This document shows, one piece after another, positions 47,990-64,000 of a stretch of 64,000 nucleotides of DNA. The stretch lies in the NCBI RefSeq assembly GCF_050920415.1, contig NZ_CP169309.1, one strand, 5' to 3'. Every line of letters begins with the position of its first letter. The first letter of the stretch is position 1. The notes beneath the pieces are model-generated. The model had not been told where the DNA came from, ran no database searches, and saw nothing but the letters and a program-made list of their open reading frames with translations. The translations under genes were made by a program, and so were the position numbers. This DNA is from Escherichia coli (GTDB lineage Bacteria; Pseudomonadota; Gammaproteobacteria; Enterobacterales; Enterobacteriaceae).

Positions 47990-48022
47990 AAAACAGGCCC
48001 TGGCGGCCTGTTTTGTCTTTTT
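47990..48022. terminator. bidirectional terminator between sspB and dcuD
   Basis: AAACAGGCCCTGGCGGCCTGTTTTGTCTTTTT. Confidence 0.8.
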
Positions 48023-48028
48023 AATCGC

Positions 48029-49396
48029 TTAATAAAATAGCGTGATAGTGGCAATCATATTCACCACGAAACCGACTGACATGGGGATCGCTGTCCGCTT
48101 CACTACCGCAAAAGGCGAAACGCCTGCAATTCCTGACGTAACGACCACCACCGCAGTAATCGGCGAAACAGCGCGCGCTAGCGTCGTGGCAAAATGCATC
48201 GGCATAATCATTACAACCGCTGGTACATGTAGTCCGGCTGCGATATTCGGAATAAGACTGGCAAATGACATAAATGGCGCATTGCCTGAGCCCATCACAA
48301 TGGCACAAATGGCAATGACCAGCGCCATAATAATCATCACGCCAATACCGCCCAGACCAGAATGCTCCGCCCCCCTGATAACCGCATCGACAGTGCCAAT
48401 CGTCGTTAAGCCTTTCGCAAATATTTCACCCGCGACCACCAGCGTTACCACGTTGGCAAACTGCGTACCCATGCCGTCAAAAAACGCCTGCACATTGTCC
48501 ATTGTTTCGCGCAAATTATGCTTGCGGAAAAACTCAACAAACATCGTCACCGTCAAACTCAGTAACATCACCACCACCAGATGCAGTTCTGACTGCATCA
48601 GTCCAGCGTGGGCGAGGAACAGCGAGCCGAGCATCAGGATTAACGGCATCACCGGTAAAATGGCGTAATAGAGCGGCGGGACATTATCGAGAGCTTTTTG
48701 CTCCGCCTGCTCGTGATTGATATTTTTATCTTTTTTGTCAAAAGCGCGTTGCACGAAAAAGTGAGAGATCGCTACCGAGATAATGACGCAAGAGGCGACC
48801 GGAAGCTGGTAGTGGAAGAAGTAAGTGGCAATTTTCATTCCTGCCACCTGGGCCGCAAAAATAGAGTTCGTTTCCAGAATCCCCCACTCAATGGACATCG
48901 TGGTTGCGATAACTGCCACCGCAGAGAGTCGACTTACTCCCAGACTCACTAGTGTTGGAAATAAGGTGACCATCAGCAACATACCCAGACCGGAGGCGCT
49001 GGTAATAAACTGCGCCATGATTTGGCCGATAACGTAAGTTGCCGACAGAATAAGATACGGCGAGCGAATGAGTTTTAACGGGCGGCTTAACAAGCTCACC
49101 ATCGCCCGACTGGCTCCTATGCGCTCCATGTAGCGGGCATACCCGCCCACAGCCATAATCGACAACCCTAACCCGGCAATGCGGTTGGACAGCATGCGCA
49201 GGATTTCATTATAAATATCGACGATCAAGTAGCCGCTGCTTTTGGCGGGATCGAGTACTCCACCGAACCCTAACCAGACACCGCACATCATCAGGAAGAT
49301 ACCTGCGGCAGCCAGCACCACTTGAGGTTTGTAGTTTTTCAGGATCAAATAGCCCATCGTCATTAATACGATGACAGATATAATTATGCCGAACAT
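48029..49396 (-). CDS. dcuD: DcuC-family C4-dicarboxylate transporter
   Basis: ~455-aa polytopic membrane protein from [28 protein letters not shown]; track ORF is extended 6 codons upstream. Confidence 0.9.
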
Positions 49397-49775
49397 TGTT
49401 GAACTCCGTGTCAAAAGAAAACGGTCAATCCCATAAACGGCAGATTGAAAACAGTGATGTTATATTTTTTGCAAGGCTATTTATGGTGTTGGTGTCGTAT
49501 TTTTTAATTCTGGATGAGGCGATTTTTCATTATAAAATATGCATTTATGATTATTTTGTAAGAACATATTCGTAATATTCATAATGCTTGTGAATAGTCT
49601 TATGAATAATTCATTCAGGATGTTTTTATCGGCGTTACACTAATTTTCGCAATAGTTAATTATTACGTTAATTATGATAATAATGAGACACAAAGAGAAA
49701 AAACCGCCATTTCCCCCTACTTTCAATCCTGTGATAGGATGTCACTGATGATGTTAATCACACTGACCTTACAGA

Positions 49776-50567
49776 ATGGGCCTTATGAACGCATTTGATT
49801 CGCAAACCGAAGATTCTTCACCTGCAATTGGTCGCAACTTGCGCAGCCGCCCGCTGGCGCGTAAAAAACTCTCCGAAATGGTGGAAGAAGAGCTGGAACA
49901 GATGATCCGCCGTCGTGAATTTGGCGAAGGTGAACAATTACCGTCTGAACGCGAACTGATGGCGTTCTTTAACGTCGGGCGTCCTTCGGTGCGTGAAGCG
50001 CTGGCAGCGTTAAAACGTAAAGGTCTGGTGCAAATAAACAACGGCGAACGCGCTCGCGTCTCACGTCCTTCTGCGGACACCATCATCGGCGAGCTTTCCG
50101 GCATGGCGAAAGATTTCCTTTCTCATCCTGGCGGGATTGCCCATTTCGAACAATTACGTCTGTTCTTTGAATCCAGCCTGGTGCGCTATGCGGCTGAACA
50201 TGCCACCGATGAGCAAATCGATTTGCTGGCAAAAGCACTGGAAATCAACAGTCAGTCGCTTGATAACAACGCGGCATTCATTCGTTCAGACGTTGATTTC
50301 CACCGCGTGCTGGCGGAGATCCCCGGTAACCCAATCTTTATGGCGATCCACGTTGCCCTGCTCGACTGGCTGATCGCCGCACGTCCAACCGTGGCTGATC
50401 AGGCTCTGCACGAGCATAACAACGTTAGCTATCAACAGCATATTGCGATCGTTGATGCGATCCGCCGCCACGATCCCGATGAAGCCGATCGCGCGTTGCA
50501 ATCGCATCTCAACAGCGTCTCTGCTACCTGGCACGCCTTCGGTCAGACCACCAACAAAAAGAAATAA
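49776..50567 (+). CDS. nanR: GntR/FadR-family repressor of sialic-acid catabolism
   Basis: 263 aa with N-terminal GntR HTH ([36 protein letters not shown]). Confidence 0.95.
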
Positions 50568-50630
50568 TGCCACTTTAGTGAAGCAGATCGCATTATAAGC
50601 TTTCTGTATGGGGTGTTGCTTAATTGATCT

Positions 50631-50653
50631 GGTATAACAGGTATAAAGGTATA
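50631..50653 (+). promoter_or_regulatory. NanR operator: three direct GGTATA repeats
   Basis: GGTATAACAGGTATAAAGGTATA immediately upstream of nanA; matches the known NanR site architecture. Confidence 0.85.
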
Positions 50654-50688
50654 TCGTTTATCAGACAAGCATCACTTCAGAGGTATTT

Positions 50689-51582
50689 ATGGCAACGAAT
50701 TTACGTGGCGTAATGGCCGCACTCCTGACTCCTTTTGATCAACAACAAGCACTGGATAAAGCGAGTCTGCGTCGCCTGGTTCAGTTCAATATTCAGCAGG
50801 GCATCGACGGTTTATACGTGGGTGGTTCTACCGGCGAAGCCTTTGTACAAAGCCTTTCCGAGCGTGAACAGGTACTGGAAATCGTCGCCGAAGAGGCGAA
50901 AGGCAAGATTAAACTCATCGCTCATGTAGGTTGCGTCAGCACTGCTGAAAGCCAACAGCTTGCGTCTTCAGCCAAACGTTATGGCTTCGATGCCGTCTCC
51001 GCCGTCACGCCGTTCTACTACCCTTTCAGCTTTGAAGAACACTGCGATCACTATCGGGCAATTATTGATTCGGCGGATGGGTTGCCGATGGTGGTGTACA
51101 ACATTCCGGCGTTAAGCGGCGTTAAACTGACCCTGGATCAGATTAACACTCTGGTTACGTTGCCTGGTGTCGGCGCGCTGAAACAGACCTCTGGCGATCT
51201 CTATCAGATGGAGCAGATCCGTCGTGAACATCCGGATCTGGTGCTCTATAACGGTTACGACGAAATCTTTGCTTCTGGTTTGTTGGCGGGCGCTGATGGT
51301 GGTATCGGCAGTACTTACAACATTATGGGCTGGCGTTATCAGGGTATCGTGAAGGCGCTGAAAGAAGGCGATATCCAGACCGCGCAGAAGCTGCAAACCG
51401 AATGTAATAAAGTCATTGATTTACTGATCAAAACGGGCGTATTCCGCGGCCTGAAAACGGTCCTGCACTATATGGATGTCGTTTCTGTGCCGCTGTGCCG
51501 CAAACCGTTTGGTCCGGTCGATGAAAAATATCTGCCAGAACTGAAGGCGCTAGCCCAGCAGTTGATGCAAGAGCGCGGGTGA
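50689..51582 (+). CDS. nanA: N-acetylneuraminate lyase
   Basis: 297 aa, [52 protein letters not shown]... Confidence 0.98.
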
Positions 51583-51690
51583 GTTGTTTCCCCTCGCTCG
51601 CCCCTACCGGGTGAGGGGAAATAAACGCATCTGTACCCTACAATTTTTATACCAAAGCGTGTGGGCATCGCCCACCGCGGGAGACTCACA

Positions 51691-53181
51691 ATGAGTACTA
51701 CAACCCAGAATATCCCGTGGTATCGCCATCTCAACCGCGCACAATGGCGCGCATTTTCCGCTGCCTGGTTGGGATATCTGCTTGACGGTTTTGATTTCGT
51801 TTTAATCGCCCTGGTACTCACCGAAGTACAAGGTGAATTCGGGCTGACGACGGTACAGGCGGCAAGTCTGATCTCCGCAGCCTTTATCTCTCGCTGGTTC
51901 GGCGGCCTGATGCTTGGCGCTATGGGCGACCGCTACGGGCGTCGTCTGGCAATGGTTACCAGTATCGTTCTCTTCTCGGCCGGGACGCTGGCCTGCGGCT
52001 TTGCGCCAGGCTACATCACCATGTTTATTGCTCGTCTGGTCATCGGCATGGGGATGGCGGGTGAATACGGTTCCAGCGCCACCTATGTCATTGAAAGCTG
52101 GCCAAAACATCTGCGTAACAAAGCCAGTGGTTTTCTGATTTCAGGCTTCTCGGTGGGTGCCGTCGTTGCCGCTCAGGTCTACAGCCTGGTGGTTCCGGTC
52201 TGGGGCTGGCGTGCATTGTTTTTTATCGGCATCTTACCAATCATCTTTGCTCTCTGGCTGCGTAAAAACATCCCGGAAGCGGAAGACTGGAAAGAGAAAC
52301 ACGCAGGTAAAGCACCAGTACGCACAATGGTGGATATTCTCTACCGTGGTGAACATCGTATCGCCAATATCGTGATGACACTGGCGGCGGCCACTGCGCT
52401 GTGGTTCTGCTTCGCCGGTAACCTGCAAAATGCCGCAATCGTCGCTGTACTCGGGCTGTTATGCGCCGCAATCTTTATCAGCTTTATGGTACAGAGTACG
52501 GGCAAACGCTGGCCAACGGGCGTAATGCTGATGGTGGTCGTGTTGTTTGCTTTCCTCTACTCATGGCCGATTCAGGCGCTGCTGCCAACGTATCTTAAAA
52601 CTGAACTTGCTTATAACCCGCATACTGTCGCCAATGTGCTGTTCTTTAGTGGCTTTGGTGCGGCGGTGGGGTGCTGCGTCGGTGGCTTCCTCGGTGACTG
52701 GCTGGGAACCCGCAAAGCGTACGTTTGCAGTCTGCTGGCCTCACAGCTGCTGATTATTCCGGTATTTGCGATTGGTGGCGCAAACGTCTGGGTGCTCGGT
52801 TTGTTACTGTTCTTCCAGCAAATGCTTGGACAAGGGATCGCCGGGATCTTACCGAAACTGATTGGCGGTTATTTCGATACCGACCAGCGTGCAGCGGGGC
52901 TGGGCTTTACCTACAACGTTGGCGCATTGGGCGGCGCACTGGCCCCAATCATCGGCGCGTTGATCGCTCAACGTCTGGATCTGGGTACTGCGCTGGCATC
53001 GCTTTCGTTTAGCCTGACGTTCGTGGTGATCCTGCTGATTGGGCTGGATATGCCTTCTCGCGTTCAGCGTTGGTTGCGCCCGGAAGCGTTGCGTACTCAT
53101 GACGCTATCGACGGCAAACCATTTAGCGGTGCCGTACCGTTTGGCAGCGCTAAAAACGATTTAGTCAAAACCAAAAGTTAA
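51691..53181 (+). CDS. nanT: sialic acid MFS transporter
   Basis: 496 aa from [47 protein letters not shown]; track ORF is extended upstream. Confidence 0.97.
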
Positions 53182-53227
53182 TCCTGTTGCCCGGTCCTGG
53201 ACCGGGCCTTTTGCTAAGGGAAGATGT

Positions 53228-53913
53228 ATGTCGTTACTTGCACAACTGGATCAAAAAATCGCTGCTAACGGTGGCCTGATTGTCTCCTGCCAGCCGGTTC
53301 CGGACAGCCCGCTCGATAAACCGGAAATCGTCGCTGCTATGGCATTAGCGGCAGAGCAGGCGGGCGCGGTTGCCATTCGCATTGAAGGTGTGGCAAATCT
53401 ACAAGCCACGCGTGCGGTGGTGAGCGTGCCGATTATCGGGATTGTGAAGCGCGATCTGGAGGATTCTCCGGTACGCATCACGGCCTATATTGAAGATGTT
53501 GATGCACTGGCGCAGGCGGGTGCGGATATCATCGCTATTGATGGCACCGATCGCCCGCGCCCGGTTCCAGTTGAAACACTGCTGGCGCGTATTCACCATC
53601 ACGGTTTACTGGCGATGACCGACTGTTCAACGCCGGAAGACGGCCTGGCTTGCCAAAAGCTGGGAGCCGAAATTATTGGTACTACGCTTTCTGGCTATAC
53701 CACGCCTGAAACGCCAGAAGAGCCAGACCTGGCACTGGTGAAAACATTAAGCGACGCCGGATGTCGGGTGATTGCCGAAGGGCGTTACAACTCGCCTGCT
53801 CAGGCGGCGGATGCGATGCGACACGGTGCATGGGCGGTAACGGTCGGTTCTGCTATCACGCGTCTTGAACACATTTGTCAGTGGTACAACACAGCGATGA
53901 AAAAGGCGGTGCT

Positions 53914-53917
<4 letters not shown>
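53228..53917 (+). CDS. nanE: N-acetylmannosamine-6-phosphate 2-epimerase
   Basis: 229 aa, [54 protein letters not shown]... Confidence 0.97.
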
Positions 53918-55250
<1,333 letters not shown>

Positions 55251-55267
55251 AACTTAGTTCGTTTTAA

Positions 55268-55296
55268 AGATTCTGCAGACACTGTCTGCAGAATTC
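55268..55296. repeat. perfect 11-bp-arm palindrome ATTCTGCAGAC-ACT-GTCTGCAGAAT between convergent nanQ and yhcG
   Basis: Read directly; same family as the three palindromes inside yhcG (core CAGAC-N3-GTCTG). Confidence 0.8.
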
Positions 55297-55309
55297 GAAA
55301 CCGCTGAAA

Positions 55310-56437
55310 TTAACGGCGTCTATAGCCTTCCTCTAGCACCGCTTGTGTTCGAACGAGTTCATCCGCGAGTCGTTTTTCATCAGGTAGTTGCATCTTATAT
55401 TCGCTTGCCAGAACGGTGTTAGGCAAACCAGCCAGTGCATAATGTGCTTCTCCGACTCCTTTTTCTGCACAGAGAACCAGACCGATGGGCGGATTTTCAT
55501 CCGGTAGCGTCCAGTGCTCTTTGGCGTAGTTGAGATACATATTCATCTGTCCGGCATCGCTATAGCTGAATTTGCCCACTTTTAGATCGACGATTAGCAG
55601 GCAGCGTAAACGGCGGTGGAAAAACAGCAGATCGACACGAAACCAGTTGTCATCAATGCGTAACCTTCGCTGTCGACCAACAAAGGCAAAATCATCCCCA
55701 AGTTCCAGCATGAAATCCATCAGGTGGTTGATCAGCGCCTCCTCAAAATCGGATTCTGAGTATTCATCTTTCAATTCCAAAAATTCGAGCACAAAGGGAT
55801 CGCGTATCGCCTGTTGCGGAAGAATATGCGTCTCGGCAGGGGCGTGTTGTTGCAGCATGGCTGATTTGTCATATGACAGTAGTGTCCGCTCATAAAATTG
55901 GGTCGCAATTTGCCGCTCTAGCTGGCGGACAGACCAACCACAGCGGAGCGCCTCTTTTTCATAAAAGCTGCGGGCGTCAGCGTTTTTAACGGAAAGTAGA
56001 CGGACGTAGGTGGACCAGGGCAGTGGGAAGGATTTGGCAGACAGCGTCTGCCAAATCTTTGCCGATGGGAATTCTGCAGACGGTGTCTGCGGAATTCCCA
56101 ATGGTGTTAATTCGCCAGACACTGTCTGGCGAATTTCAACATGTTGAAAAAAGAGGTAAAAAAGCCTCATTTGGCGTAAGTTTTTTGCAGAGAACCCACG
56201 CTTATACCTTAGACTTAAATCCTTTGAGAGCCGTTTGATAAGCTGTGCACCATAAGCCGCTCTGGCCTCGCCGCCTTGTTCAAATTCGACAATCCGTCGA
56301 CCAATTTCCCAGTATGTCGCGGTCATTAACGCGTTAACGCTACGTACCGTTTCCGTGCGGGCGCTATCGACCAGGTGAATAATACCGTCGTGGATTTGCT
56401 GGTAGCCTGCTGTGGTTCCTTCTGAGAGCGATTCCAT
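55310..56437 (-). CDS. yhcG: DUF1016-family protein with predicted PD-(D/E)xK nuclease fold
   Basis: 375-aa ORF; the motif LIVDLK resembles a PD-(D/E)xK core; contains three tandem 13-aa repeats encoded by DNA palindromes. Confidence 0.85.
   Translation of the reverse strand: MESLSEGTTAGYQQIHDGIIHLVDSARTETVRSVNALMTATYWEIGRRIVEFEQGGEARAAYGAQLIKRLSKDLSLRYKRGFSAKNLRQMRLFYLFFQHVEIRQTVSGELTPLGIPQTPSAEFPSAKIWQTLSAKSFPLPWSTYVRLLSVKNADARSFYEKEALRCGWSVRQLERQIATQFYERTLLSYDKSAMLQQHAPAETHILPQQAIRDPFVLEFLELKDEYSESDFEEALINHLMDFMLELGDDFAFVGRQRRLRIDDNWFRVDLLFFHRRLRCLLIVDLKVGKFSYSDAGQMNMYLNYAKEHWTLPDENPPIGLVLCAEKGVGEAHYALAGLPNTVLASEYKMQLPDEKRLADELVRTQAVLEEGYRRR
56026..56131. repeat. three tandem ~28-33 bp palindromes at ~39-bp period inside the yhcG coding region
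   Basis: GATTTGGCAGAC-AGC-GTCTGCCAAATC (56026..56053), GGGAATTCTGCAGAC-GGT-GTCTGCGGAATTCCC (56063..56095), AATTCGCCAGAC-ACT-GTCTGGCGAATT (56105..56131). Confidence 0.8.
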
Positions 56438-56596
56438 TATCTGTCCCTTTATATGGCGCTGCGTTGAATAATGGGATCAGCTATACGCCGGGCATCTGCC
56501 GGTAACAATCCAGGTGGGCTTGTTACATGGGTTTTCTTCACGTTATGCGAGGCGCTTTCCAGCAATTGTGCTGTAACGTTGTGCTGAAGATGAAGC

Positions 56597-56630
56597 AAAT
56601 AAAAAGGCCGGAGCGGGCGCATCCGACCAG
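56597..56630 (-). terminator. putative rho-independent terminator downstream of the vWA gene (end of five-gene operon)
   Basis: Minus-strand reading GGTCGGA-TGCGCCCGC-TCCGGCC followed by TTTTTATTTG; stem includes one G-U pair. Confidence 0.55.
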
Positions 56631-56635
56631 AATTT

Positions 56636-57805
56636 TCAGGAAGTTTCTCTTGCTGTCACTACGCCATTTTGCGCAGCCCACAGATTCACATCTTCCTTAC
56701 GAATGGCGGCGGCCATCATGCCGGGGAATAAATCAGGGGTACAGGCAAAGGAGGGAATACCCATGGCGGCGAGTTTTCCTGCCAGTGACCGGTCGTAAAA
56801 CGGTGCGCCTTCGTCGCTTAAGGCCAGCAGGGTAACCACCTGTACGCCGGACTGAATCAACTCACTGGCGCGTTGCAACAGATTGCGTTCCACACCACCT
56901 TCGTAGAGGTCGGAAATCAGCACCAGAATGGTATTACGCGGATCGCGAATCAAAGACTGGCAGTAACCTACCGCGCGGTTGATGTCGGTGCCGCCGCCCA
57001 GCTGCACGCCAAACAGCAGCTCTACCGGATCGTCGAGCTTCTCTGTCATATCAACCACTGCGGTGTCGAAAACCACCAGATGCGTTTTTACCGCCGGGAG
57101 CGATGCCATTACTGCGCCAAAAATACTGGAATAGACCACCGAGGAGGCCATCGACCCACTCTGGTCGATACATAAAATGATCTCCTTTTGCGTGCGTTGA
57201 GACTTGCGCCCGTAGCCGATTAACGTTTCAGGAACAATACTTTTGTACTCTTCCTGCCAGTGGCGCAGGTTGGCGCGAATGGTGCGCTGCCAGTCAATTT
57301 CCGCGTGGCGCGGGCGACGATTACGTACCGCACGATTAAGAGCGCCGCTTACCGCGCTACGCATTGGCTCTTCAAGCTGTTTCATCAATTGCTCGACAAC
57401 TTTACGCACCACAATCCTGGCGGTTTCTTTGGTTTTGGCCGGAATTACGCCATTCAGCGACATCAGCGTGGAGACCAGATGAACATCAGGCTGGACGTTT
57501 GCCAGCATCTCTGGCTCCAGCAACATACTGTGCAAATTAAGACGTTCAAAGGCGTCTTTTTGCATCACCTGAACCACAGAAGAGGGGAAATACTGGCGAA
57601 TATCACCCAGCCAGCGAGCGACTTTGGGTGACGATCCACCCGTGCCGCCGCGTAATCCATGTTTACCGTCTGGCTGATAGAGCGCCGCCAGCGCGGCATC
57701 AATCGCGGACTCTCTGGCATCCAGCGCCACGTTACAGGCATTGTCGGCATCTTCTCCAAGGATCAGACGCCAGCGGCGCAGCCGTTCCATCTCGTTACTC
57801 GACAT
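56636..57805 (-). CDS. von Willebrand factor type A (vWA) domain protein; last gene of five-gene operon
   Basis: 389-aa ORF with MIDAS-like motif D-x-S-x-S (ILCIDQSGSM) and downstream vWA-like hydrophobic strands; overlaps the upstream gene by 11 nt. Confidence 0.8.
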   Translation of the reverse strand: MSSNEMERLRRWRLILGEDADNACNVALDARESAIDAALAALYQPDGKHGLRGGTGGSSPKVARWLGDIRQYFPSSVVQVMQKDAFERLNLHSMLLEPEMLANVQPDVHLVSTLMSLNGVIPAKTKETARIVVRKVVEQLMKQLEEPMRSAVSGALNRAVRNRRPRHAEIDWQRTIRANLRHWQEEYKSIVPETLIGYGRKSQRTQKEIILCIDQSGSMASSVVYSSIFGAVMASLPAVKTHLVVFDTAVVDMTEKLDDPVELLFGVQLGGGTDINRAVGYCQSLIRDPRNTILVLISDLYEGGVERNLLQRASELIQSGVQVVTLLALSDEGAPFYDRSLAGKLAAMGIPSFACTPDLFPGMMAAAIRKEDVNLWAAQNGVVTARETS

Positions 57806-60044
57806 GATTTTCCCTTTCGTGTGGTGGCAAAGCCAGAATGCGGCGCAGTAGCGGCAGCATTAACGCGGCACGCTGTTCATCCCATATACCGCTGGTCTCT
57901 TCTTGCTGCGCGACACGCTCGCCCTGCGCGGCGCGTTCGCCTAACTGGCGGCGTTCCGGGCTGGAAAAACGGCCGAATGTCCGCCGCAGCATCGGCAGGA
58001 TCCGGGTGAAGTGATTGTCGTTCAGGCCGCTTAGCCAGGCATCGATCAACTGCCATAATTCGCTATTGTGCAGTAGCACCATCGCGCTGTCGTTGAGGAA
58101 ACCTTCCGCCCATGCGGCACTTTCCGCCGGGGGATTGGCTGGCGATAGCGCCAGGTTCATCAGCGTGGTGATCCGTTCTGTCGTTAACGTTTGCAGATCA
58201 AACAACAGGCGCGTCGCCGTTCCGCGAAGCAGCGCGTGTGCGGTACTGCCCTCTGCCAGCACCATCAACGCCTGCAACCAGCCCGCCAACAGATCTTCGT
58301 TATCCAGCAACCGCAGCGCGGCGTGAGCGTCGATAACTTTTTCTCTCATACTGGCGGCGCTGTCGTCGTTGAGCGCCGAACAGGCACCGGGTAGGGCGAT
58401 GGCGGCGCGCGGGGCGAGGCTCATCAGTACCTGCATTACCATACCAGAGTCGGTCTGGCGCACGTTGCCGTAGCGGACAATCGCCACCAGCGGTGCCAGG
58501 GCTTCCAGCAACTGTTCGATATTGCCCTGAGTGGCAGCCAGTGATTCCAGTGTATTGGCGATGGGGGCAATCGCGGCCTGTAAATCGGCCAGTAGCACTT
58601 GTTGGATAAGCTTTGCCAGTTCCGGCAGCGTGCTGGCGTATTGCGCCCTCACAATGGCATAGCGGGAGCTGGCCTGCTCAATGCTGTTACCCCAACGGCT
58701 GGCGGTAATGATGTTCATTGCCAGTGCCGGTTCCCAGCGCAGCGACCAGACTTCGTGGAACGTCCCTTTGCTGTTATTTCCTTGTCCAGCCAGACGGCCC
58801 CAGGAAATGTCGAGTAAGGTCAGGCGATGCAGTAAATGGCTACGCGCCAGATCGCCGGGTTTGCGCAGATCAAGATCCAGCACTTTTTCGCTGGCTTCTG
58901 CCTTCAGGCGCAGCGTTTTTTGCTGTTGCGTAATGTCGCGTTGGAGCGGCACGACGGGCGTATCATCCGGTACGCTTCCCAGCGCGTCGCCGACAATTAA
59001 CTTCTGGCGAATCATCTGCATTGGCGCGCTTTCGCCCATACACACTACGGTTTGCAGCGCTTCGCAAAGTTCGTCAAGCCCCGGCTGCGGGTGATGGCGC
59101 ATAATCGCCAGCGTCTGCGCCAGCCGCGCCGCTTCGATAATGTGGGCGCTGGAACAGTCGAGATCGGCTTCGCGAAACAGCCTTGCCGCGCGTGACAGCC
59201 AGCCGATATCGCGGTGAGAAGCGCCCTGATAACGCCACAGATGATCGTACCATTCCGGTGACACCACCCCTGCGCCATAACCGCTGGCGCGGCTTAACGC
59301 CTCGTAGCTCCAGGGCGTCCAGGCTGCCGCGACCTTGCACTTCGGCAAATTTTTCAGCAGTTCGTTATCATTCTTTGCGGGCGGCAGGTTTTCCAGCGCC
59401 GGAACGTGCCACGCACCGCAGACTACCGCGATGCGCGAGAAGCCCTCTTTTTTCGCCTGACGTAGCGTCTTGCGCATATACGCTTCACGCAGTTGATCTC
59501 TGGCTGAGTTTCGGGCTTCGGGAGTTGCCTGGCGTAGGGCAATCATCGCCTCGCGAATCGCCTCGAACAGAGACAAATCATCTTCGCGTTCCTCTACTCT
59601 GTGGCTCCACCAGCTTTCCCCATCGGTGTAACCGGCGGCGCGGCCCAGCCAGTCCAGCGGATCGCCGTCGGGACTGGCTTCAACGGCATCATCGTCATCG
59701 CTCTCTTTTTCGTCATCAAGCGCGAACTGATGACTGATGGGCAAGTCCATAAAGCGCACGGCGATATTTTGCTCAAAACCATAGCGCAGCGCCTGCCATT
59801 CCGGGGAGAACGCCGCAAAGGGGTAAAACGCGGCGTGATGTGAGTCGTCCGGGGCATAAATCAGTAGCGCGACCGGCGGTTGCATCTGTTCATGCTGCAT
59901 GAAAGGCAGGATGGATTCGCCGTCGGGCGGCCCTTCCACCAGCAGGCAGTCGGGCTGTAGCGTCTCCAGCGCCTTTCGCAGGCTGCGCGCGCAGCCAGGG
60001 CCATGGTGACGGATGCCAAACAAATGAACGGTTTGTTCAGTCAT
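57795..60044 (-). CDS. large uncharacterized protein (749 aa), Leu/Ala-rich helical; fourth gene of operon
   Basis: Long uninterrupted ORF with acidic stretch DDEKESDDDDAVEASPDGDP; no motif I can assign by eye. Possibly the DUF5682 family (from memory, unverified). Confidence 0.7.
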   Translation of the reverse strand: MTEQTVHLFGIRHHGPGCARSLRKALETLQPDCLLVEGPPDGESILPFMQHEQMQPPVALLIYAPDDSHHAAFYPFAAFSPEWQALRYGFEQNIAVRFMDLPISHQFALDDEKESDDDDAVEASPDGDPLDWLGRAAGYTDGESWWSHRVEEREDDLSLFEAIREAMIALRQATPEARNSARDQLREAYMRKTLRQAKKEGFSRIAVVCGAWHVPALENLPPAKNDNELLKNLPKCKVAAAWTPWSYEALSRASGYGAGVVSPEWYDHLWRYQGASHRDIGWLSRAARLFREADLDCSSAHIIEAARLAQTLAIMRHHPQPGLDELCEALQTVVCMGESAPMQMIRQKLIVGDALGSVPDDTPVVPLQRDITQQQKTLRLKAEASEKVLDLDLRKPGDLARSHLLHRLTLLDISWGRLAGQGNNSKGTFHEVWSLRWEPALAMNIITASRWGNSIEQASSRYAIVRAQYASTLPELAKLIQQVLLADLQAAIAPIANTLESLAATQGNIEQLLEALAPLVAIVRYGNVRQTDSGMVMQVLMSLAPRAAIALPGACSALNDDSAASMREKVIDAHAALRLLDNEDLLAGWLQALMVLAEGSTAHALLRGTATRLLFDLQTLTTERITTLMNLALSPANPPAESAAWAEGFLNDSAMVLLHNSELWQLIDAWLSGLNDNHFTRILPMLRRTFGRFSSPERRQLGERAAQGERVAQQEETSGIWDEQRAALMLPLLRRILALPPHERENHVE

Positions 60045-60061
60045 AGTGGTTGCCTTGCTGA

Positions 60062-61156
60062 TTACACAATTTCGCGGCAGGCGCGATAGAGATCGTTCCA
60101 GTCGCTGCGCTCTTTGACGATAGTTTCCAGATATTCACGCCATACCACGTCGTCCTGCACGGGATCTTTTACCACCGCGCCGATAAGGCTTGCGGCGATA
60201 TCCCGCGGATGCAGCACGCCGTCGCCAAAATGGCCCGCCAGCGCCATACCGTTGTTGATAACGGAGATCGCCTCCGCGGTGCTGAGAGTACTGGTTGGCG
60301 ACTTAATTTTCGTTTTGCCGTCAACCGTCAGGCCGTTTCGCAGTTCGCGGAAGATTTGCACGACTCGCTGGATCTCTTTAAGCGCTGGCGGTTTGGCAGG
60401 AAGTGCCAGCGCCTGACCCAGTTCGGCGACGCGGCGAGTGACAATGTTAATCTCTTCTTCTTCGCTGGCGGGTACGGGCAAAATGACCGTGTTGAAACGA
60501 CGTTTAAGCGCGGAAGAAAGCTCGTTAACGCCTTTATCCCGGTTGTTGGCGGTGGCGATAACGTTAAAGCCGCGCGTCGCCTGGACCTCTTCATTCAGTT
60601 CGGGGATAGGCAGCGTTTTTTCCGACAGGATCGTGATCAGCGTGTCCTGAACATCAGCAGGAATACGCGTCAGCTCTTCTACGCGTGCAATCTGCCCGCG
60701 CGCCATCGCCCGCATCAACGGACTTTCTACCAGCGCCAAACGTGACGGACCTTTAGAGAGCAACTCCGCGTAGTTCCAGCCATAACGCATTTGTTCTTCA
60801 CCGGTGCCTGCGGTGCCCTGAATAATTAACGTTGAGTCGCCGCTGATGGCAGCCGCCAGATGTTCAGATACCCAGGATTTCGCAGTGCCGGGTACGCCAT
60901 ACAACAGCAGTGCGCGATCGGTTGGCAGCGTGGCAACGGCGGTTTCGATAATCCGCCGGTTGCCGATATATTTCGGCGTGACCTCAAAGCCATTTTCCAG
61001 CTGCCCGCCCAACAGATAGGTGGCGACGGACCATGGAGAAATGGCCCAGTTTTCCGGGCGCGGATGAGTATCGTTTTTTTGCAGCTCATCCAGTTCTTCA
61101 GCAAATTGTTGTTCGGCATGTCGGCGTAAAACGGCGGCAGTAGCGGTAGCATTCAT
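60062..61156 (-). CDS. MoxR-like AAA+ ATPase (AAA_5-type); third gene of operon
   Basis: 364 aa; Walker A LLLYGVPGTAKSW; Walker-B-like IARVEEL followed by IPADVQDTLITILSE (compare MoxR/CbbQ hhhhDE..RAxPxVQxALLExMxE); ATGA overlap with upstream gene. Confidence 0.85.
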   Translation of the reverse strand: MNATATAAVLRRHAEQQFAEELDELQKNDTHPRPENWAISPWSVATYLLGGQLENGFEVTPKYIGNRRIIETAVATLPTDRALLLYGVPGTAKSWVSEHLAAAISGDSTLIIQGTAGTGEEQMRYGWNYAELLSKGPSRLALVESPLMRAMARGQIARVEELTRIPADVQDTLITILSEKTLPIPELNEEVQATRGFNVIATANNRDKGVNELSSALKRRFNTVILPVPASEEEEINIVTRRVAELGQALALPAKPPALKEIQRVVQIFRELRNGLTVDGKTKIKSPTSTLSTAEAISVINNGMALAGHFGDGVLHPRDIAASLIGAVVKDPVQDDVVWREYLETIVKERSDWNDLYRACREIV

Positions 61157-62757
61157 AAAGTGGTTTCTCCGACAAAAAGCGAATTAAGTTGAATTCGGTT
61201 CGCCAGCGCGGCGCTCAGGGCAGTAAAGGCTGCCTCGCAATAAGGCGTTTGTTGTGCGTCGTGCGGCCACTTGTCAATGACATCATTGAGGACTTCGGGG
61301 GCCAGCAGGCAGGCGAAATCACTCATCACATGGCGCAGGGCGTAGTCAAAGCGCGCGGAATCATATTTCACCCAACGGTGTAGCTCCGTGACCATTTGCT
61401 GGCTCAGGCGCAGGCTAAAGAGCGACGCATCCAGCGGTAACAGGCTGATGTAGCGATGTAAATGTTCGCCGCCCACCACTGAGAACAATGACCGTAACAT
61501 CGGCTCGTGTTCTTCTACAGGCAGACATTGCAAAAGCTCAAAGGCGTTAATCTTCACGCCTGCAGGATGATGAATGCTCATTCCGACGGGCAGCATGGCG
61601 AGAAACGCCTGCGCCCACTGCGGATTTTTTTCGCGCAGTACGGCGTGATACCAGGCGCGCAGTAGCGCCTTCTGCCAGTCGGTTTTCCCGGCCCAGCGCA
61701 GCAGTTCAACGGGGGTAGCCTGCAGTTGCGTTTGCCACCAGTCGAGCGGAACCGCTGCAACTATCTGATACAGCCACCATGCGCGCTGGCCCAACTTTTC
61801 GCCTTTGGGCTTAGTTTCTTCCAGCGCATCGGCCTTCCACTCTGGTAAGAACGCCTCCGGGGCATCAAGGGCGACGTGCAGCATTTTTTCTTTGCCGGAT
61901 AAGCCTTTTAGCCTTTCAAGTAAGGTCTCAGGAGCGGGGGATGAACTGAGCAACGGCGCTAACCGAGACTTCATGCGCGAGATCCAGGCGCTTTCCGGCA
62001 GACAACACAGTAACCGTGCCGCAGTTTGCCGCACCTCTTTGCTGCGATCGGATAATGTCTGTTCCAGAAAGGCTTCGTCGTGTTGGGAGATCTCCACTTC
62101 CAGCACAGCCAGCAGCTGTGCGCGTTCGCGGGCATCCAGCGAACTCATCTCCTGCGCCAGCCGATCGCGACCCTGTTCCGGGGCGCGAATGCGCATTTGC
62201 GTCAGATATTGCAGACGCTGTTCGGACGTGCCGTGCAGCCACATTTCTTCATCCAGCGGAGCGTCAACGGAGGCAAGAAAATAGCGCCAGTCGGCGTTAA
62301 TTTGCGCCAGCCAGCGCCCGCGAGCGCCGAGGACATTGGGCAGAATGCCGCGTATTGATGGATTTTGTACGCCGTAATTCAGCAGTGCCGGTAACAGCAG
62401 GGGCGGAGAAAGAAGCTGACGCTGGACCAGGTGATCAAGCGCTGACCACAGTAAACGCGGCGGCCCTTCTGCCAGCAACAGATGCAGCAGTCCCGCAAAA
62501 GCCGGGTTGTTTATTGGCTCGGCATTTTCTTTATCGATTTCCGGCAGCGGTGCGGGGTCAATCGCCTGCGGCACCCAGCCAGCCAGATGGCAGAGCGCCA
62601 GAACGCCCGCCGAGCGCAGTAGCTGTTGCTCTGCGGATGTGTTATTCGCCAGTTCAGACAGTAACAGCCCAATCTCACTTTGCGACGCCGACGGTGTGAA
62701 CGCTTTTTTGTCTGTGCCGAGTAGCGCTGTGCGGGTTAAATTTTGCCATTCGTTCAT
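61153..62757 (-). CDS. uncharacterized protein (~534 aa), Leu/Ala/Trp-rich helical; second gene of operon
   Basis: ORF 61153..62778 in the track; start chosen at the Met whose ATG forms an ATGA overlap with the SWIM gene stop (62754..62757). Possibly the DUF5691 family (from memory, unverified). Confidence 0.7.
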   Translation of the reverse strand: MNEWQNLTRTALLGTDKKAFTPSASQSEIGLLLSELANNTSAEQQLLRSAGVLALCHLAGWVPQAIDPAPLPEIDKENAEPINNPAFAGLLHLLLAEGPPRLLWSALDHLVQRQLLSPPLLLPALLNYGVQNPSIRGILPNVLGARGRWLAQINADWRYFLASVDAPLDEEMWLHGTSEQRLQYLTQMRIRAPEQGRDRLAQEMSSLDARERAQLLAVLEVEISQHDEAFLEQTLSDRSKEVRQTAARLLCCLPESAWISRMKSRLAPLLSSSPAPETLLERLKGLSGKEKMLHVALDAPEAFLPEWKADALEETKPKGEKLGQRAWWLYQIVAAVPLDWWQTQLQATPVELLRWAGKTDWQKALLRAWYHAVLREKNPQWAQAFLAMLPVGMSIHHPAGVKINAFELLQCLPVEEHEPMLRSLFSVVGGEHLHRYISLLPLDASLFSLRLSQQMVTELHRWVKYDSARFDYALRHVMSDFACLLAPEVLNDVIDKWPHDAQQTPYCEAAFTALSAALANRIQLNSLFVGETTL

Positions 62758-64000
62758 TGTGCGCCTCCGGTTGCCCAAATCACGCTACCGGCAAGCCAGG
62801 CGCTACAGGGCGTCAGCTGCTGACCATCCCATTCCCCCATTAGCATAAACGGCGCGCCGCCGCTGGCCGCCAGTAACCGCCAACCCTCGTCCGACGACAG
62901 GTGCGTCGGTAAGTGCTGGCCCTGTGTCGAGACGAATCGCCAGCCGCTCTCGTGCGGGTAAATCAATATTTCGCTTACTCGCAGCGGCAGAGGCCATTGC
63001 CAGGGATTCGCGCTAAGCCGCTGCGCCATGTCATGCAGCGCGTCCGGGAGGGGTAATTCTGCAAGCGGGAATCTTTCACCGCGGGTAAACGGCTCCACAA
63101 TCCGCGCCCGTAGCGGTGATGCGCCAGGGAAAAAGGCAAGCGCGCCCTGGCAGACTTGCCCGGTGATAAAGTGCTGGGGAAAGTTTTTACCACCGTGTGA
63201 ATAGTCCAGCAGTAGCGCGGTGCGGTGGCTCTTTTCTCCGTACAGCCAGACCCGGCGTCGCCACAGATTATTCTCTTCTTGCGCGCTTTGGCCTAAGACC
63301 TGCCAGTTATCAAGGCAGGTTAGTCCGTCAGCGATGTCATGTTTATCCGGGGTTATTCCCAATGCTGCATGGAGATCGCTAAGTTGTGCCGGGGATAACA
63401 TTTGTTGCTGGCGCCAGGCGTCAATAATCAGCTGTAGCTGCCCCAGTTCTTTGCACAGGCTCGATGGCCATACCTCGGCGGTAGTAAAAAGAGTGGTCAG
63501 ATTGTTCAGGCGAGCGGCAATTCCCGGTAGTTGAGCGTCGACCATGCGGGCGGCGATCCCGGCAAAAGGCAACTGTTGTGCAGAGATCTGCGCCAGACCG
63601 TGGCGGATCAGGTCGTGCATCCACTGTTCGAGGAAATCCAGCCCCGCCGTCATTTTTTGGTTGCGTGCCGCTTCCCGTTTGGCGGCAGCCTGCGGGTCGG
63701 CAGCTTTTGCCTCAGCCTGCTCTTTCTTTTCTTCTTTGCGAACCGCTCGCTGCTGGCGCGAGGTTAGCCACTCGCTTACCCATTCCGGCGGCTCGCCAGC
63801 GGTGAAACTTGCGGTGTGTTGCACCTGGAGCAAAAGCAACGCAAGGCTATGTTTACAGGGGAATTTACGGCTGGGGCAGGAACATTTACAGGCCAGATCC
63901 TGCCTGTCGACCCGTACCTGATAAGGGCGGGAGCCGCTGCCTTTACATTCTCCCCAGAACGCGGTCTCGCTATATCCCAGCGTCGGCCATTTTGCGGGGG
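62754..64000 (-). CDS. SWIM zinc-finger domain protein, 5'-truncated by the window edge; first visible gene of operon
   Basis: Hand translation upstream of the track ORF gives ...GECKGSGSRPYQVRVDRQDLACKCSCPSRKFPCKHSLALLLLQVQ..., a CxC-x(n)-CxH SWIM signature; no stop codon before position 64000, and the track ORF start is a TTG. Confidence 0.8.
   Translation of the reverse strand, partial: PAKWPTLGYSETAFWGECKGSGSRPYQVRVDRQDLACKCSCPSRKFPCKHSLALLLLQVQHTASFTAGEPPEWVSEWLTSRQQRAVRKEEKKEQAEAKAADPQAAAKREAARNQKMTAGLDFLEQWMHDLIRHGLAQISAQQLPFAGIAARMVDAQLPGIAARLNNLTTLFTTAEVWPSSLCKELGQLQLIIDAWRQQQMLSPAQLSDLHAALGITPDKHDIADGLTCLDNWQVLGQSAQEENNLWRRRVWLYGEKSHRTALLLDYSHGGKNFPQHFITGQVCQGALAFFPGASPLRARIVEPFTRGERFPLAELPLPDALHDMAQRLSANPWQWPLPLRVSEILIYPHESGWRFVSTQGQHLPTHLSSDEGWRLLAASGGAPFMLMGEWDGQQLTPCSAWLAGSVIWATGGAQ

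Follow-up and report, generated by a model that had tools for sequence, protein, structure and literature searches.

What is the five-gene operon that stands next to yhcG in this Escherichia coli chromosome: a recent arrival that displaced the genes known from K-12, or an older part of the variable gene content of the species, and what might its products do? The stretch analyzed here (contig NZ_CP169309.1, hereafter the window) is 64,000 nucleotides long. Over positions 55300-64000 it matches the E. coli MFDS1022581 chromosome (NZ_CP169399.1) at 100% identity, and features past the window end at 64000 were read from the full chromosome record and are given in window-equivalent coordinates. The operon lies between yhcG and gltD and encodes, in the direction of transcription, a SWIM zinc-finger protein, a DUF5691 protein, a MoxR-type AAA+ ATPase, a DUF5682 protein, and a VWA protein, all co-oriented. 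Its sequence and distribution suggest a rare, old, and functional second copy of a MoxR-VWA-SWIM machine, putatively of the YehL type.

A preliminary description of the window had set the operon against a K-12 gene order in which yhcG is followed by yhcF, an IS5-disrupted yhcE, and yhcD/yhcA. This order was right, since the record of K-12 MG1655 (NC_000913.3) reads gltD-gltF-yhcA-yhcD-yhcE::IS5-yhcF-yhcG. The alignment to K-12 found none of the gltF/yhcADEF genes in our strain, as had been claimed, and the gap between yhcG and the operon, estimated at about 200 bp, measures 198 bp. The rest of the window was said to follow K-12, and it is indeed collinear with it at about 96-99% identity. Homology to K-12 ends at position 56492, 55 bp upstream of the yhcG start, and picks up again at the gltD stop codon. 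The description had concluded that this is a strain-variable site of insertion or replacement. The variability is real, with at least five states at the site; the framing as an insertion relative to K-12 was only partly right, since K-12 itself carries an insert and the empty junction is the commonest state.

The alleles were counted among 5,426 complete E. coli genomes. The empty state, taken as a probe across the uninterrupted yhcG-gltD junction being covered in one piece, was found in 3,141 of them, with 183 bp between gltD and yhcG. The gltF-yhc segment of K-12 was matched in 1,293 genomes, nearly all at 99% identity or more, and in 1,120 over at least 80% of its length. Like the operon, the gltF-yhcADEF cluster occupies the gltD-yhcG spacer and ends exactly at the gltD stop codon, but its products are unrelated (DUF1120 proteins and the chaperone and usher of a fimbrial system), and its GC content is 43%. 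The five-gene operon is present in only 33 genomes (0.6%), in all 33 on the chromosome and at the gltD-yhcG/nanQ site. In B2-type strains, e.g., ATCC 25922, yhcG is absent and nanQ adjoins gltD. The sequence right after the gltD stop codon differs from allele to allele. K-12 is thus not the reference state at this site: its gltF-yhc cluster is an insert into a usually empty position. Two side observations concern these comparison strains. ATCC 25922 also lacks dcuC/dcuD between sspB and nanR, and in NZ_CP010444.1, a record labelled K-12 MG1655, the IS5 in yhcE runs straight into a truncated mtgA, which implies an IS5-bounded deletion of yhcD, yhcA, gltF, gltD, gltB, yhcC, arcB, and elbB.

The neighbouring yhcG (55310-56437, minus strand, 375 aa, PD-(D/E)xK / DUF1016 protein) had been described as a predicted PD-(D/E)xK nuclease, and the assignment to this family holds; it also matches the PADLOC candidate-defence family PDC-S02 (E 2.5e-135). 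Because it is missing from the B2-type ATCC 25922, yhcG is itself an accessory gene; it is also replaced or truncated in SMS-3-5, 504239, and 18KM2445. The left junction of the window is found in 4 of the 33 carriers, and the arrangement of SMS-3-5 in the other 29. In the latter, two small unannotated open reading frames (190 aa and 48 aa) and a 123-bp remnant of yhcG take the place of the gene; the two reading frames had no PADLOC, NCBIfam, or PHROG match. The carrier 18KM2445 combines the window-type left junction with a yhcG that is truncated and frameshifted; it also has a small transposase-like reading frame, for which the annotation libraries returned nothing usable.

The limits of the strain-specific DNA can be placed precisely. 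Of the 198-bp spacer between yhcG and the VWA gene (56438-56635), the 128 bp upstream of yhcG (56438-56565) are shared with empty-site strains, whose alignments reach as far as 56562-56565. The left edge of the unique segment is therefore at 56565/56566, and the right edge is exactly the gltD stop codon. The segment (56566 to window-equivalent 64308) is 7,743 bp long, has a GC content of 57.3%, and stands in for 55 bp of the empty-site spacer. The preliminary description had suggested looking past the window end for the hallmarks of an island, but neither junction has an integrase, a tRNA, a target duplication, or a terminal inverted repeat in its surroundings. The annotation shows no integrase, recombinase, or transposase in the 20 kb to each side of the operon, the Pfam domains of the five proteins are unrelated to such enzymes, and ARAGORN found no tRNA or tmRNA in a 30-kb stretch of the chromosome record around the site (locus L001, 10000-40000). 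Direct and inverted repeats were looked for over the full length of the unique segment and across its junctions; none marks the two junctions, and elsewhere only chance-level pairs turned up. The sole pair with arms near both ends (24 nt, 71% complementary) joins the stop-codon regions of VWA and gltD and sits about 65 bp inside the left junction. The two junction sequences, compared with each other, have nothing in common. We infer that the operon is not a self-mobile island.

How long the operon has been at this site can be gauged from its relatives. A scan of one genome per species returned no close relative of the cassette: the nearest was in Superficieibacter electus (65-66% identity for DUF5682), and further matches came from Chromatiaceae, Pseudomonas, Verrucomicrobia, Mailhella, Bacteroidales, Chloroflexi, and others. 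A protein search then supplied two intermediate alleles, both at the same gltD-side site. In one unclassified Escherichia of the cryptic clade the order is arcB-yhcC-gltB-gltD-cassette-yhcG remnant-nanQ, with flanks 90-94% and cassette 88-96% identical to ours. In Klebsiella huaxiensis it is gltD-cassette-nanQ-nanK-nanE-nanT-nanA, with flanks 67-85% and cassette 66-84% identical. The rates of synonymous substitution (dS) of the cassette climb in step with those of its flanks: against SMS-3-5 the window strain has a dS of 0.01-0.11 in the cassette and 0.14-0.27 in the flanks, against the cryptic clade 0.17-0.32 and 0.31-0.38, and against K. huaxiensis about 1.0-1.3 and 0.8-2.7. A recent island insertion is not supported, given this shared site and a divergence that scales with the flanks. 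Because the cassette occupies the same place in the cryptic clade and in K. huaxiensis, diverges as its flanks do, and bears no marks of mobility, we consider it an old resident of this position in Escherichia and its relatives, which was probably lost from most E. coli lineages or exchanged by homologous recombination via the flanks. Within E. coli, the cassette has a lower dS than its flanks, so lineages have probably swapped it to some extent by way of these conserved regions. The five genes are intact and under purifying selection, with ratios of nonsynonymous to synonymous substitution (dN/dS) of 0.03-0.27.

Two observations bear on the surroundings of the site. In K. huaxiensis, a 216-nt stretch between gltD and the SWIM gene (locus L047, 9391-9606) is 71% identical to yhcG; it is on the opposite side of the cassette from the yhcG of E. 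coli and is perhaps a relic, perhaps fortuitous. In the window strain, the flanking core genes dcuC, the nan genes, gltD, and gltB (48000-56500 and window-equivalent 64300-68000) are 95-96% identical to K-12, and most other parts of the window 97-98.5%, so that divergence peaks locally around the polymorphic locus. These more-diverged flanks extend over 8 kb toward the nan genes and 4 kb toward the glt genes, which fits a recombination-prone variable locus.

Base composition gives a mixed picture. The impression that the operon is GC-richer than its surroundings was borne out by the computation, with 57.3% in the unique segment and 51.0% in the window from 1 to 56565; other stretches of 7.7 kb in the window reach 53.6% at most. 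The GC content at third codon positions is 0.60-0.67 in the cassette, the local core mean being 0.54, and first and second positions are raised too. The neighbouring gltBD genes have 56-57% GC. Codon usage, the other check that had been proposed, showed no contrast: the codon-usage distances of the five genes are all within the local core range, and codon usage was for this reason rejected as a marker of foreign origin. In seven of eight other hosts checked, the cassette is also GC-richer than its own flanks (e.g., 56% versus 44-46% in Alistipes and 67% versus 62% in Deinococcus). Part of the GC excess therefore seems intrinsic to the proteins that the cassette encodes.

All five genes are on the minus strand of the window, and their spacing is typical of an operon. 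The SWIM gene comes first (62754 to window-equivalent 64076, 440 aa); its start codon is 76 bp past the window end, and the next gene, gltD, is 232 bp away in the full chromosome record. It is followed by the genes for DUF5691 (61153-62757, 534 aa), the MoxR-type ATPase of the AAA_5 family (60062-61156, 364 aa), DUF5682 (57795-60044, 749 aa), and, last, the CoxE-type VWA protein (56636-57805, 389 aa). SWIM and DUF5691 overlap by 4 nt, DUF5691 and MoxR by 4 nt, and DUF5682 and VWA by 11 nt; a gap of 17 nt separates MoxR from DUF5682. Directly past the VWA stop codon lies a terminator-like hairpin with a U-run (56597-56628, hairpin 56606-56628, minus strand). In the fold of 56566-56640 on the minus strand, the U-run reads UUUUUAUUU; the whole 75-nt fold has an energy of -16.6 kcal/mol, which by itself is unremarkable (z-score of -1.1 relative to shuffled sequences). 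A promoter scan upstream of the SWIM gene gave no convincing sigma-70 promoter.

The same five genes recur well beyond the enterobacteria. The order SWIM-DUF5691-MoxR-DUF5682-VWA was kept in every complete locus among the 34 species of many phyla that we analyzed. We clustered the 312 open reading frames flanking these 34 loci and found no sixth conserved gene, the only recurrences being among close relatives. Hence, the module appears self-contained. Its neighbours in other taxa are varied housekeeping genes, such as recC, gyrB, ribosomal protein genes, and hydrogenase genes. The subunits differ in their identity across taxa: 62-88% for MoxR, 51-86% for VWA, 37-66% for DUF5682, 28-54% for SWIM, and 26-42% for DUF5691, which is the fastest-evolving one (dN/dS of 0.24-0.27). 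DUF5682 alone is represented by 4,445 clusters at 50% identity (E at most 0.001). Plasmid matches exist, on some large plasmids that are mostly megaplasmids or chromids. The search for phage carriage gave essentially nothing, i.e., one dubious metagenomic "phage" contig. On a Competibacter-like metagenome contig, transposase genes cut the cassette after MoxR, and DUF5682 and VWA are missing there, a case of decay.

Within E. coli, the closest counterpart of the operon is yehLMPQ. The ATPase is 41% identical to YehL over 350 residues, to be compared with the weak match to NorQ, DUF5682 is 27% identical to YehM, and the VWA protein 37% identical to YehP. The MoxR family comprises seven subfamilies, and YehL gives its name to one of them (PMC3893208). 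This subfamily was classified by Snider and Houry. Both systems comprise a MoxR ATPase, a DUF5682 protein (YehM is so annotated in RefSeq), a VWA protein, and a SWIM-finger protein. Several traits of YehL-type systems are found here: an AAA_5 ATPase with its motifs, an adjoining VWA gene with a metal ion-dependent adhesion site (MIDAS), and DUF5682 and SWIM partners. The differences lie in the gene order, which is MoxR-DUF5682-VWA-SWIM in yehLMPQ, in DUF5691, of which no counterpart was detected there, and in the distribution: yehLMPQ is near-core, with at least 5,209 of the 5,426 genomes carrying it, whereas the cassette is in 33. Apart from its finger, the SWIM protein was not found to resemble YehQ or YehI, and comparing the SWIM and DUF5691 profiles with YehQ, YehI, YehK, and YehF by hhalign gave no significant result. 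Judging from these protein comparisons, the operon is a distant second copy, i.e., a paralogue, of the near-universal yehLMPQ system. Given the frequency of yehLMPQ, the 33 carriers very probably hold two such systems each. The literature that we searched contains nothing on DUF5682, DUF5691, or the cassette, and nothing functional on yehL, yehM, yehP, or yehQ.

To see what such a system might do, we examined the subunits one by one. The ATPase matches Pfam AAA_5 (E 2e-38) and, marginally, bpMoxR (E 1.1e-3). In a set of 28 homologues of many phyla, 35% of all positions are invariant, among them the Walker A motif GVPGTAKS and the motifs ATAN and RRF; a sensor 1 and an arginine finger were both found. 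At the Walker B position (residues 156-161) the ATPase reads IARVEE, with Glu-Glu where Asp-Glu is usual, and neither the EE pair nor Arg158 varies in the same 28 homologues. The closest solved relatives of the ATPase are midasin (1e-16) and NorQ (2e-5), and no sequence match to a solved structure was obtained for DUF5682, DUF5691, SWIM, or VWA. The VWA protein contains VWA domains only (Pfam VWA_CoxE, E 3.6e-52). Its motifs D213-x-S-G-S, GGGTD, and SDL, invariant in 27 homologues, can be read as an intact MIDAS site. The DUF5691 protein matches its own Pfam family (E 4.7e-121) and, very weakly, HEAT repeats (E 0.57); we suspect a helical-repeat fold. Among the remaining libraries, NCBIfam yielded no usable match to any of the five; in PHROGs, VWA and DUF5682 match families of unknown function and the ATPase matches generic ATPase families.

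DUF5682 matches its Pfam family over its full length (E 6.7e-268), and its AlphaFold model (pLDDT 93, pTM 0.88) has an N-terminal alpha/beta domain (about residues 1-260) followed by all-helical repeats of about 480 residues. The fold of the N-terminal domain matches a TraB-family protein and ChaN, which suggests a TIKI/TraB/ChaN-like hydrolase domain. Residues R12, H13, H14, E37, E82, R186, E187, R191, and H213 are invariant in 97 representatives and form the motifs GxxHH, E, RExxMR, and GAWH. Active hydrolases of the TIKI family have a catalytic set of two His and two Glu plus an Arg, and PMT, a protein of TIKI fold in which the motif is missing, has no endopeptidase activity (PMC6254334). 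The invariant His, Glu, and Arg of DUF5682 resemble this set, and the protein may thus be an enzyme. DUF5682 would share the fold and the 2His/2Glu-plus-Arg-like residues with the TIKI/TraB/PrgY/erythromycin-esterase/ChaN superfamily, but its domain is fused to some 480 residues of helical repeats and is encoded in an AAA+/VWA operon. The SWIM protein (Pfam SWIM, E 1.2e-6) has a structure model whose fold matches suggest a ZSWIM8-like SWIM module and OB-like barrels.

A further lead came from Deinococcus deserti. Its SWIM protein is 41% identical to that of E. coli over the full length and heads the same five genes, which lie between adk and infA inside the ribosomal-protein/secY/rpoA cluster (locus L055, 9001-16272). 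An RNA-seq study of D. deserti reported a five-gene operon with a SWIM gene first among the radiation-induced genes (PMC4007540), and its description fits this cassette. In our strain, a CTGT-N8-ACAG palindrome, which reads CGCTGTTACGGAAAACAGTC on the coding strand, occupies window-equivalent 64143-64158, 65-80 bp upstream of the SWIM start. It is kept in the E. coli and cryptic-clade Escherichia alleles and occurs one other time in the 64-kb window. We take CTGT-N8-ACAG to be the core of the gammaproteobacterial LexA box, and the motif upstream of SWIM is, as a lead, a putative LexA site. Because the D. deserti version is reported to be radiation-induced, a role in stress or DNA damage is the leading lead on function.

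If these elements are put together, the MoxR ring would supply ATP-driven remodelling, and the VWA protein might serve as its adaptor through the MIDAS, by analogy with midasin, NorQ/NorD, and RavA/ViaA. DUF5682 would carry on its helical scaffold a hydrolase centre of the TIKI/TraB type, and DUF5691 might be a second scaffold subunit. Recognition of the target, be it a protein or a nucleic acid, would fall to the SWIM subunit, which is predicted to have a ZSWIM8-like module and OB-like barrels. We hold each of these steps with low confidence. Midasin/Rea1, NorQ/NorD, and RavA/ViaA likewise combine an AAA_5-type ATPase with a MIDAS VWA module that docks onto a target, but in our operon the two are encoded as separate proteins and accompanied by three further subunits, and no client such as a ribosome assembly factor, nitric oxide reductase, or Complex I is indicated. 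A more specific version, very unlikely in our estimation, is that the cassette, and by extension yehLMPQ, is an unrecognised stress machine induced by DNA damage, in which the AAA+/MIDAS motor would deliver the TIKI-type hydrolase to targets that the SWIM/OB subunit would recognise on nucleic acid. It might, for example, clear by proteolysis the proteins trapped or crosslinked on DNA, as a bacterial counterpart of protease-plus-AAA+ repair.

We favour, with moderate confidence, the whole explanation, i.e., a rare old-resident operon at a multi-allelic site that encodes a MoxR-VWA remodelling machine. A number of observations weigh against it. The lower dS of the cassette than of the flanks within E. 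coli fits spread between lineages as well as vertical descent. The exact-sequence cluster of the K. huaxiensis DUF5682 comprises only K. huaxiensis and one further Klebsiella isolate, so that a vertical history requires many independent losses. The distribution over phyla is patchy, and the GC content of the operon is 6 points above that of the rest of the window. A 12.4-kb block that contains the cassette is common to Alistipes putredinis, Bacteroides sp. 43_108, and Bacteroides gallinarum at 99.7% identity, which indicates a recent transfer between genera of gut Bacteroidales. Taken together, the high GC, the patchiness, and this block imply that the cassette moves horizontally on some timescale. 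On the functional side, the D. deserti operon of the RNA-seq study was equated with the cassette by its description, the LexA-like motif has a centre rich in GC, neither the K. huaxiensis nor the Superficieibacter allele contains it, and a profile comparison (hhalign) of DUF5682 with YbaP, a TraB protein of E. coli, was not significant (E 0.53). The rival reading of its history is a recent genomic island, i.e., a horizontal entry into the lineage of this strain that displaced K-12-type genes. Its GC contrast, its presence in so few genomes, the distance to the nearest species-level relative beyond the Escherichia and Klebsiella alleles (the Superficieibacter DUF5682), the scatter over phyla, the near-identical Alistipes and Bacteroides copies, and the copies on large plasmids all speak for such an entry. 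We nevertheless judge it quite unlikely, as the junctions have none of the usual traces of integration, the insertion point is the same in the cryptic clade and in K. huaxiensis with divergence as in the flanks, the E. coli alleles already differ by 0.4-4.6% per gene, codon usage is within the core range, GC is a poor indicator for a cassette that exceeds its flanks in seven of the eight other hosts checked, and the supposedly displaced K-12 genes are themselves inserted into a usually empty site.

The remodelling machine that we favour has two rivals in function. In one, the operon is an anti-phage or conflict system, where the NTP-dependent MoxR-VWA machine would sense the invader via SWIM and DUF5691 and release DUF5682 as a hydrolase effector. 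It adjoins yhcG, which matches PDC-S02, in a small hypervariable interval, its distribution is patchy, SWIM and DUF5691 have changed at several times the rate of MoxR and VWA, and MoxR-vWA ternary systems have been predicted to act against invaders with peptidase effectors (PMC12839542, PMC10910872). The operon resembles these ternary systems in its MoxR AAA+ protein with a vWA partner, its faster-evolving subunits, and its putative peptidase-type effector; it differs from them (vWA-MoxR-VMAP, beta-propeller, iSTAND) in that its VWA has no fused effector, that no beta-propeller, VMAP, or iSTAND component was found, that its ATPase matches bpMoxR only marginally, and that its partners are DUF5682, DUF5691, and SWIM. 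Yet the 5,027 models of PADLOC-DB v2 gave no significant match to the five proteins, the sole hits being two IetA matches on the Walker A stretch of the ATPase (residues 77-104, E 0.0017 and 0.0034). Housekeeping neighbours in other taxa, dN/dS values of at most 0.27 with no sign of diversifying selection over whole genes, a near-core paralogue in E. coli, and the near absence from phage genomes also make a defence role unlikely. We are equally doubtful of a chaperone for maturation or metal insertion, in the manner of CoxD/CoxE, NorQ/NorD, CbbQ/CbbO, or AAA+/VWA chelatases, that would act on a distant client, with the ChaN-like DUF5682 binding a metal or tetrapyrrole. The VWA protein is of the CoxE family, the MoxR precedents have chaperone-like maturation roles (PMC3893208), NorQ is among the nearest solved ATPases, the haem-binding ChaN is a fold match of DUF5682, and the ATPase matches a PHROG family annotated as "porphyrin biosynthesis". 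However, no conserved client gene stands beside the cassette in the 34 loci and further contexts, the His/Glu/Arg set of DUF5682 is like that of the active TIKI-type hydrolases and is missing in PMT, and no large subunit of the CobN/BchH type (BchIDH, CobNST) was found among the five proteins.

The locus is thus an ordinary example of accessory-gene polymorphism in E. coli, with a correction to the way in which it would usually be read: K-12 is not ancestral here, and a rare cluster of high GC can be an old resident instead of a new arrival. The gene set is the more interesting part, given its strict five-gene order over many phyla and its paralogue in nearly every E. coli. The suggested TIKI-like domain, the predicted ZSWIM8-like and OB module, and the reported induction in Deinococcus offer concrete leads on genes that have stayed unannotated in K-12 for decades.

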